Positions 60,466 to 64,000 of a stretch of 64,000 nucleotides of DNA are shown here, in pieces. How positions within the stretch are numbered: position 1 is the first letter of the stretch; each line of letters opens with the position of its first letter. The stretch is from Escherichia coli (lineage in GTDB: Bacteria > Pseudomonadota > Gammaproteobacteria > Enterobacterales > Enterobacteriaceae), in NCBI RefSeq assembly GCF_051903065.1, contig NZ_CP178438.1; one strand, given 5' to 3'. A model generated the notes under the pieces. The model was not told where the DNA came from. It ran no database searches and saw only the letters and a program-made list of their open reading frames with translations. The translations under genes and the position numbers were made by a program.

Positions 60466-60495
60466 AAAAAGGGCTGACAGTTGTCAGCCCTTTTT
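60466..60495. terminator. bidirectional intrinsic terminator between oppF and yciU
   Basis: AAAAAGGGCTGACAGTTGTCAGCCCTTTTT: perfect hairpin flanked by A5 and T5. Confidence 0.7.
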
Positions 60496-60513: not shown

Positions 60514-62338
<1,825 letters not shown>

Positions 62339-62480
62339 AGATTAGAAATCCTTTTGAAAGCGCATTGTTATGAGTTTACGCATATGGATTCATCTGGCAA
62401 ATAAAAACGCGGGAAAAGCACTGGTCAGCGTCGGGGGCGGGGGTATAATGACCATTCTGTTATTGCATAGAGTAGTTAAC

Positions 62481-62654
62481 ATGAAGCGGAGTAGAACGGA
62501 AGTGGGGCGCTGGCGCATGCAGCGTCAGGCTAGCCGACGTAAATCGCGTTGGCTTGAGGGGCAATCGCGCCGAAATATGCGTATCCACAGCATCAGGAAG
62601 TGCATTCTAAACAAACAGCGTAACTCGTTATTGTTTGCGATCTACAATATCTAA
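62481..62654 (+). CDS. yciY: small basic protein YciY (57 aa)
   Basis: ATG at 62481 gives MKRSRTEVGRWRMQRQASRRKSRWLEGQSRRNMRIHSIRKCILNKQRNSLLFAIYNI; the ORF-track entry 62370..62654 is an upstream extension of it. Confidence 0.45.
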   Translation: MKRSRTEVGRWRMQRQASRRKSRWLEGQSRRNMRIHSIRKCILNKQRNSLLFAIYNI

Positions 62655-62708
62655 ATGTACTGGGCACCATTGCGGTGCCCAATAAGTTTACTCTTCCGTC
62701 TTTAAACT

Positions 62709-63962
62709 CTATTTTTGCGCCGATTCTTTACTGTCAGCTTTCGTTTCTTGTTCATCGTTATCGCTGAAAATGCCATGACCGGAGTTCAACAACATTGAAA
62801 CGAGCATATCATTATTAATCTCTTCACCATTTAAAACTCGCGCCAGAATTTCGCTGCCAAACAGTTGCGGTGAGAGAATGATATCCGGATGTACCATCTT
62901 AATCTTATTCAGGTTTTTGCTATCACTGACGGCGAGAACTGTTTTGACATCACTGCTCATATCTTTTGCCGAGAGTACAACAAACGCGTTATCTGCATCG
63001 TTATCACTCAGCGCCAGAATGGCCCGGCAACGATCGATTCCCGCTTTCTTTAATACAGAACTGTCATTACTGTCACCGGGGATAACATCAGCGTTATCGC
63101 CTAAGCGTTGCTCAAGTTGCTTGATATCATCTTCAGGCAAGTTGCTGATAACCGTTACGTTTTGTCCGCGTTGATTCAGTTGCAGGATCGTATTGATAGC
63201 GAGAATCGAATGTCCGCAAACAATAAAATGATCTTTACGATGCATTGTATGATTGTTTCCTTTTACAAGTTTGTTGAATCCCCCGCGGATAAGCGGACCA
63301 AAAATTGAGGTCATAGATGTGGCAAAAACGGTAATGCCGGAAATAATGACCGAAATAGTGAACAATCGTGCTGATTCAGAAACAGGGACAATATCTCCAT
63401 AGCCGACGGTTGACATGGTTTCTATCGAAAAATAGAACGCGGTCATCAAACTTTCTATTCGCGGATTAAAACCTTCGCTTAAATAAAGCGCACCGTAGGT
63501 TGAGTAAAACAGTAATGTCGTGAAACTAATAAATGCAAAAATTGTCCCGGCTGCGGCGCTACTGTGGGAGAAGTCTTTGCGCAGTATCAGCAAAAACACC
63601 AGCGTAAAAATGCAAAATCCAATACTAAATTTCAGCCAGGGATAAAAATGCAGGGTGTAAATTAGCGCTATCAACAACAAAATGATACTGATTGCCCATG
63701 CGAGCTTTGCCCGGAACAGTAAGCCAATGGAGTTCAGGACAAGAAAGACGCCGAGCATAAATAGTGGGGCGTTTGCCAGCAAGGAGAGATCCAACTCTGA
63801 AAATGCTTTGATATGGAAAATATCAAGCAAATTGACCGACATACCATAGATTGTTTTAAAAATAAGCAATCCATTTAAAAAGACGGCCAGCGCGAGAATG
63901 TCGTGCCGTAGGGTCACCCATAAATTTGTTGCTGTTTGTTTGAATGTAGCCCAGTGACTCAC
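62709..63962 (-). CDS. kch: voltage-gated K+ channel Kch (RCK/TrkA-N domain); GTG start
   Basis: ORF 62709..63980; recognised N-terminus (M)SHWATFKQTATNLWV at an in-frame GTG; selectivity filter TVGYGD present. Confidence 0.9.
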   Translation of the reverse strand: MSHWATFKQTATNLWVTLRHDILALAVFLNGLLIFKTIYGMSVNLLDIFHIKAFSELDLSLLANAPLFMLGVFLVLNSIGLLFRAKLAWAISIILLLIALIYTLHFYPWLKFSIGFCIFTLVFLLILRKDFSHSSAAAGTIFAFISFTTLLFYSTYGALYLSEGFNPRIESLMTAFYFSIETMSTVGYGDIVPVSESARLFTISVIISGITVFATSMTSIFGPLIRGGFNKLVKGNNHTMHRKDHFIVCGHSILAINTILQLNQRGQNVTVISNLPEDDIKQLEQRLGDNADVIPGDSNDSSVLKKAGIDRCRAILALSDNDADNAFVVLSAKDMSSDVKTVLAVSDSKNLNKIKMVHPDIILSPQLFGSEILARVLNGEEINNDMLVSMLLNSGHGIFSDNDEQETKADSKESAQK

Positions 63963-64000
63963 TGATACCTCTGTAACCACAATTTTGTTTAATTATCTTA

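Follow-up and report, generated by a model that had tools for sequence, protein, structure and literature searches.

The small arginine-rich open reading frame (ORF) at 62481–62654 on the plus strand of the window, the whole 64,000-nucleotide stretch of E. coli DNA that was analyzed, is yciY, a gene that is already annotated and known and for which translation evidence has been published. Purifying selection and the published translation data indicated that YciY is a translated small protein and not a chance ORF. This analysis added codon-level selection, a multi-family distribution and a head-to-head pairing with cls at fixed spacing. It also added an invariant TATAAT, a 3′ hairpin, an Escherichia-specific kch neighbor and a mis-called long start. 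The best explanation as a whole is a translated yciY with its own promoter, encoding a polyanion-binding helix. We hold it tentatively, at a little short of an even chance.

Identity of yciY and conservation of its frame

A preliminary description of this DNA had pointed to a 57-codon frame encoding a highly basic peptide, alone between cls and kch, and had recognized it as yciY. These points were confirmed. The frame has 57 codons plus stop, starting with the ATG at 62481 and ending with the TAA at 62652–62654, and the RefSeq CDS of yciY ("YciY family protein", WP_001309467.1) coincides with it base for base in a 100%-identical E. coli chromosome. Its product, MKRSRTEVGRWRMQRQASRRKSRWLEGQSRRNMRIHSIRKCILNKQRNSLLFAIYNI, is a protein of 57 residues and 7.1 kDa. 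It contains 13 Arg (23%), 4 Lys and 2 Glu, giving a net charge of +15 and a pI of 12.0. The gene is the only one annotated in the 370-nt gap between cls (clsA, cardiolipin synthase; 60878–62338, minus strand) and kch (minus strand; 62709–63980 as an ORF, 62709–63962 as annotated). The same description had called cls and kch convergent, which was wrong. Both are on the minus strand and are thus co-directional; yciY points away from cls and toward kch.

The protein of K-12 b4595, printed in tables of PMC4909307 and PMC10746267, is identical to the window protein. The NCBIfam HMM NF033701 (yciY_fam; cutoff 30 bits) matched it with 109.8 bits (E = 5e-32), covering residues 1–55 of the 56 profile positions. 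PF26518 ("YciY") was assigned to all homologues in precomputed tables. A Pfam-A scan of YciY gave no match, and the Pfam copy used was presumably older than PF26518. The window protein has the length of the family (56–60 residues) and its N-terminal core, MKRSRxEVGRWRMxRQ...RWLExQSRRNMRI. All 19 invariant columns of a 28-sequence YciY alignment are present in it. Compared with the YciY family (NF033701; PF26518) and K-12 b4595, it is the type member, with no difference, the same length and the same position beside cls. On every point that could be checked, the window protein belongs to the YciY family.

The YciY region was found in 5419 of 5426 complete E. coli genomes, and its annotation was uniform among the rows sampled. 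In the E. coli collection, 13 of 5432 matching places were on plasmid-labeled records, and some genomes had up to three places. These places may represent duplicated regions, chromosomal DNA carried on plasmids or replicons with a wrong label. YciY sequences were also found under the labels Listeria monocytogenes (a 252-nt contig), Chryseobacterium sp. 18061 and "uncultured Raoultella"; these records look like contaminating or mislabeled enterobacterial DNA. In the literature on yciY, only one paper was found with relevant main text. The supplements of a Salmonella small-protein census did not name yciY.

Conservation of the frame was analyzed across species. A one-genome-per-species pattern scan gave 338 species with a relative; the 80 best loci were studied, together with one E. 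coli record. The ATG start and an intact frame without internal indels were present in 81 of 81 Enterobacteriaceae loci, with 57 codons in 73 of them and 59 codons in 8. For the 79 distinct sequences, the pairwise Nei–Gojobori dN/dS was 0.083 in frame versus 1.65 and 2.39 in the shifted frames. It was 0.049 for codons 1–40 and 0.176 for codons 41–57. Variation was concentrated at third positions (53 of 57 variable, versus 28 first and 22 second positions), and the entropy was 1.08 at third positions versus 0.37 at first and 0.23 at second positions. The yciY frame was the only one open in all 79 distinct sequences. The best antisense frame was open in 25 of them, indicating that there is no conserved overlapping gene at yciY.

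The length of the frame alone is not significant: when the 370-nt cls–kch gap was shuffled with dinucleotides preserved, 22% of the shuffles contained an ATG-initiated ORF of at least 57 codons. Unlike ORF length, the conservation of yciY exceeds chance. An exhaustive profile search and cluster look-ups extended the family to Morganella, Providencia, Brenneria, Pectobacterium, Symbiopectobacterium, Erwinia and Rouxiella. With these relatives beyond Enterobacteriaceae, the YciY family spans much of the order Enterobacterales, and it was found in at least five families of the order. It is practically certain that yciY is a real, translated protein-coding gene.

Disruptions of the frame in relatives were sought, and the only case was an IS1 insertion in one E. 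coli strain. In E. coli C3728 (NZ_CP196347.1, 2682–3555), IS1A is inserted after codon 40 of yciY, and the gene is annotated as a pseudogene. This record covered less than 80% of the yciY query; all others in the sampled rows covered at least that much. The insertion indicates that yciY is dispensable in at least that background.

Some codon choices were also conserved. Arg5 (codon 5, 62493–62495) was AGA in 70 of the 79 distinct sequences, and Arg39 (codon 39, 62595–62597) was AGA or AGG in 72 of them. The remaining Arg codons were nearly all CGN. The first ten codons showed lowered synonymous variation. Selection acting on the translation-initiation region, or on the speed of decoding, may lie behind the AGA/AGG bias and the low early synonymous variation.

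Published data support translation in K-12. The preliminary description had considered expression not evident from the sequence alone, a fair caution, and had named ribosome profiling, tagged-protein detection and frame conservation as checks. The conservation is given above, and the other two are available in the literature. In PMC4909307 (Nakahigashi et al. 2016), the yciY ATG (K-12 position 1306812) is among the start sites from tetracycline-inhibited ribosome profiling (TetRP). Its row there carries the values 192.4, 4.17 and 46.0; YneM and YncL, two small proteins that have been validated, have similar values in that table. In that work, Venus fused to the chromosomal yciY fluoresced, and the fusion served as a positive control. 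Table S3 of PMC10746267 (Schumacher et al. 2023) gives ribosome footprints for yciY of 50–84 RPKM at pH 7.6, 79–112 at pH 5.8 and 166–229 at pH 4.4. The mRNA values are 104–176, 454–687 and 445–787 RPKM, respectively, and the translation efficiency is 0.2–0.5. Thus, in acid (pH 5.8 and 4.4) the mRNA was about 3–5 times and the footprints were 1.5–3 times higher than at pH 7.6. These values indicated that yciY is transcribed and translated at a moderate level in K-12.

The cls–yciY locus and its expression signals

The arrangement of yciY with cls was constant. The two genes were divergent in 81 of 81 Enterobacteriaceae loci, and the distance between their start codons was 136–146 bp in 80 of them. 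Divergence from a 486-residue PLD-type cls was also observed in Morganella, Brenneria and one further relative. The pairing was present in all 84 distinct loci examined. The other side of yciY varied, with kch, yciI, a chemoreceptor gene or an unknown gene as the downstream neighbor. Of the 81 loci, only the six from Escherichia had kch beside yciY, and no kch homologue was found within the flank in the other 75. Therefore, kch looks like an insertion in the Escherichia lineage between yciY and yciI. Outside Escherichia, the next gene was usually a 98-aa ORF (yciI-like) or something else.

Two cls genes were odd. In Citrobacter amalonaticus AUH_CA_2023_1, the cls match spans only residues 155–486, beside an intact yciY. 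The cls of Kluyvera genomosp. 3 YDC799 is 68% identical, versus 93% in a sister Kluyvera, and yciY is intact there too. Both may be assembly errors or damaged genes.

The spacer between cls and yciY, 142 bp of intergenic DNA in the window, was aligned for 23 loci, representing 22 distinct genomes as one of them duplicates the window. A consensus scan predicted a yciY promoter with a −35-like hexamer TGGTCA (62422–62427, plus strand), a 16-nt spacer and a perfect −10 hexamer TATAAT (62444–62449, plus strand), with 10 of 12 consensus matches. The TATAAT was invariant in all 23 aligned loci within variable surroundings, and the −35 region is in a conserved block, GAAAA-N-CGCTGGTC. Back to back with it, the scan predicted a cls promoter (TTGCCA, 16 nt, TAAACT; 62373–62400, minus strand; 9 of 12 matches). 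Its hexamers are within the conserved blocks GAGTTTACGCA and TCTGGCAAATAAAAAC (plus-strand letters), and the two −35 hexamers are 21 bp apart. The ribosome-binding site of cls is likewise conserved. yciY would be transcribed from this sigma-70-type promoter of its own, with a predicted transcript start near 62455. The invariant divergence of cls and yciY would most simply reflect two interlocked promoters that are hard to separate, and it may also couple the expression of both genes.

A longer ORF of 94 aa, called by many pipelines and starting from the ATG at 62370 (62370–62654, plus strand), was considered and rejected as non-coding. It runs through the invariant TATAAT of the yciY promoter, which is read as G-I-M in Escherichia and Klebsiella and as G-Y-N or V-Y-N in other genera. 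Because the TATAAT falls in different frames in different genera, the extension was rejected. It is conserved only at promoter elements, and the TetRP start in PMC4909307 is the ATG of the 57-aa frame. Many database entries for Escherichia, Klebsiella, Trabulsiella and metagenomes have long versions of YciY (93–98 aa). As the extension is not conserved as protein, their starts are mis-called and read through the promoter of yciY itself.

The Shine–Dalgarno (SD) sequence of yciY is weak, as the preliminary description had noted. An SD-like GAG (62470–62472, plus strand) is located 8 nt before the ATG, and almost every one of the 81 loci has (A)GAG at this distance. Within positions −20 to −1, the strongest pairing with the anti-SD had −2.4 kcal/mol; the median was −2.7 at random positions and −5.5 at 44 long ORFs in the window. 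The start region is unstructured (folding z +0.86), which fits initiation with a weak SD. Translation would start at this ATG despite the weak GAG, aided by the unstructured, A/U-rich start region.

A GC-rich hairpin, UGGGCACC-AUUGC-GGUGCCCA (62661–62681), follows the yciY stop by 7 nt. Its free energy is −17.7 kcal/mol on the plus strand and −20.6 kcal/mol on the minus strand (z about −4.1), and none of 200 shuffles was as stable. The core GGGCAC(C)/(G)GTGCCC was found 3–10 nt past the stop in 81 of 81 Enterobacteriaceae loci, whichever gene was downstream, with variable loops. An A-run and a T-run on its two sides give it the form of a bidirectional terminator in many genera. The E. coli hairpin has no good U-tract on either strand; a terminator consensus scan missed it because the T-run is absent. 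The folding and comparative data show that the hairpin is real despite this miss. It is likely a bidirectional terminator or a 3′-end stabilizer common to yciY and kch, and in this role it would close the yciY transcript. In Brenneria, another terminator, a canonical one, occupies this position.

The stem GGGCACC/GGTGCCC is nearly invariant across genera in which synonymous sites are saturated (dS about 1.2). Its sequence conservation, in contrast to that of the variable loop, exceeds what a generic terminator needs. A scan with Rfam 15 gave nothing at or above the gathering score, and no match in 62339–62708. Two sub-threshold matches, CRISPR-DR35 (62766–62801, minus strand, inside kch; 21.8 bits versus 35, E = 0.6) and STnc320 (60467–60494, plus strand, just past oppF; 21.5 bits versus 50, E = 0.89), are most likely chance.

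The YciY protein

The 3D structure of YciY was modeled using AlphaFold2 with the 28-sequence alignment. The model is one continuous helix of residues 5–56 with a mean pLDDT of 91, a confidence that, for an isolated helix, does not prove a helix in solution. The 19 invariant positions include R10-W11-R12-M13, R23-W24-L25-E26 and Q28-S29-R30, and both Trp residues are invariant. These runs imply that invariant residues face all sides of the predicted helix. The hydrophobic residues are spread around it as well.

No transmembrane segment was found in YciY; the maximum 19-residue Kyte–Doolittle mean was 0.09, versus roughly 1.6 needed. No amphipathic face was found either, as the 18-residue hydrophobic moment was at most 0.53 at a mean hydrophobicity of −0.8 to −0.9. 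These values are below the Eisenberg line for surface-seeking helices. YciY is predicted to be cytoplasmic. The small membrane proteins of E. coli found by Hemm, Storz and Rudd, cited in PMC4909307, are like YciY in being small, late-annotated and validated by tagging or profiling. They are mostly single-pass membrane proteins, whereas YciY has no hydrophobic segment.

A tandem construct of two YciY copies gave no confident packing in AlphaFold2 (pTM 0.27, mean pLDDT 59.6), the linker construct being a weak test, and its C-terminal ends were below pLDDT 50–60. No heptad pattern was found in residues 41–57, where the tail SLLFAIYNI has consecutive hydrophobic residues (LLFAI). A sequence and profile search of the PDB found no YciY chain in any entry. 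The match to mitochondrial uS14 was not significant (E = 0.66 with the single sequence and 0.24 with the profile, about 33 residues); it is a local likeness of the type WRMxRxxxRRK...RIxSxRK to the N-terminal helix region (residues 26–63). Foldseek of the model against the PDB gave 0 matches, a result that is uninformative for a single helix. Searches of PHROGs and PADLOC found no family at E up to 1. YciY is not a leader peptide by its context, with a downstream gene that is convergent (kch) or variable and a hairpin 3–10 nt past the stop. Thus, YciY falls outside the small-membrane-protein, zipper, uS14, leader-peptide, phage and defense classes.

Possible partners of YciY

YciY is not expected to hold a stable helix on its own, because its net charge is +15 and just two of its residues are acidic. 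Alone, the peptide is probably disordered, and it probably takes up its fold on a polyanionic partner wrapped around the helix; the constraint on every helix face suggests that it folds inside this partner. A polyanion is favored over a bilayer because YciY has no hydrophobic surface. The partner would most likely be RNA, either rRNA or the ribosome, or an mRNA. This reading draws on analogy. Arginine-rich-motif RNA-binding peptides, such as those of lambda N and HIV Rev/Tat, share with YciY a high Arg content, helical propensity, Trp and Gln amid Arg and the expected folding on binding. YciY differs from them in having no sequence homology and in being a free-standing protein of 57 residues with a 52-residue predicted helix, versus a motif of 15–20 residues. 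The small basic ribosome-associated E. coli proteins Sra/bS22, RMF, bL34 and bL36, compared by composition, also have 45–60 residues, a pI above 11 and no fold of their own. However, the sole resemblance of YciY to an RNA-binding protein is the non-significant one to mitochondrial uS14 (E = 0.24–0.66). By analogy, then, YciY may bind a polyanion, specifically RNA or the ribosome, and we consider this possible, with the balance leaning against it.

Binding to RNA leaves the invariant cls linkage across the order unexplained. This linkage fits better with the main rival, in which YciY acts with ClsA or with an anionic phospholipid (cardiolipin or phosphatidylglycerol) and tunes the synthesis or localization of cardiolipin. 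It is the only reading that uses the divergence from cls in 81 of 81 loci at a spacing of 136–146 bp, a pairing kept in Morganella, Brenneria and one further relative while the downstream gene changes. The net charge and the two invariant Trp residues would suit anionic head groups. A precedent is ClsC, which needs co-expressed YmdB for full activity; the two pairs are alike in having a small gene constantly beside a cardiolipin synthase gene. They differ in that YmdB is a macrodomain protein co-transcribed with clsC, whereas yciY diverges from clsA, and its sequence is unrelated. In addition, transcription of clsA is stress-induced according to a review, and yciY mRNA rises 3–5 times in acid (PMC10746267). 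Against this, YciY has neither a hydrophobic face, given its low moment and very low hydrophobicity, nor a membrane segment, and its invariant residues are on all helix faces instead of one lipid-facing side. Linkage within one order can also be inherited synteny locked by overlapping promoters. We consider this rival unlikely.

Alternatively, YciY could be an effector of a less specific kind, a stress-induced peptide with a polycationic, toxic or antimicrobial-like effect. Its Arg/Trp-rich composition is like that of cell-penetrating and antimicrobial peptides, and its mRNA and footprints rise in acid stress (PMC10746267). The low translation efficiency and the weak SD would keep its level modest. 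The conserved rare AGA/AGG codons at Arg5 and Arg39 also fit this reading. A non-specific role, however, needs neither 19 invariant positions nor a dN/dS of 0.049 over residues 1–40. No antisense RNA or toxin–antitoxin partner was evident at yciY, and the defense-system (PADLOC) and phage (PHROGs) libraries gave no match. Such a role is improbable.

Bacterial regulators are commonly divergent from the genes that they regulate, and yciY has this arrangement with cls as a candidate target. YciY could then be a DNA-binding regulator of the divergent cls–yciY promoters, resembling a basic-region/zipper protein, with the N-terminus contacting DNA and the C-terminus pairing. The single long predicted helix, basic over its first two-thirds and more hydrophobic and variable in its tail, and the tightly constrained intergenic length are consistent with this. 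The absence of confident pairing in the tandem model, itself a weak test, and the absence of a heptad in the tail argue against it. Moreover, the conserved intergenic blocks are all explained by two promoters and two ribosome-binding sites, and no extra palindrome was seen. We regard regulation of this kind as quite improbable.

Finally, it is very improbable that the locus matters as a promoter or transcript (modulating cls, as a leader ORF or through a 3′-derived small RNA) with an incidental peptide: the invariant TATAAT, the constant distance to the cls promoter, the conserved hairpin and the non-significant ORF length would fit, but this reading is largely refuted by codon-level selection (dN/dS 0.083 versus more than 1.6 off frame), and it is also opposed by the lack of a co-directional downstream gene, the hairpin directly past the stop, the absence of an Rfam family match and the expressed YciY protein fusion (PMC4909307).

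The favored explanation remains a translated YciY whose helix would bind a polyanion. A broader proposal, which we regard as rather unlikely, is that YciY is an order-wide dedicated partner of the cls locus. It would bind ClsA, or the anionic lipid that ClsA uses or makes, or control the shared promoter, and thereby set cardiolipin levels under stress. If true, this would explain why yciY is kept beside cls while the other neighbor changes. YciY is a well-defined target, with 57 residues, strong purifying selection and a head-to-head position with the main cardiolipin synthase gene. If it acts on the ribosome or RNA, or modulates cardiolipin synthesis, a gap would be closed among the catalogued small proteins of the best-studied bacterium.
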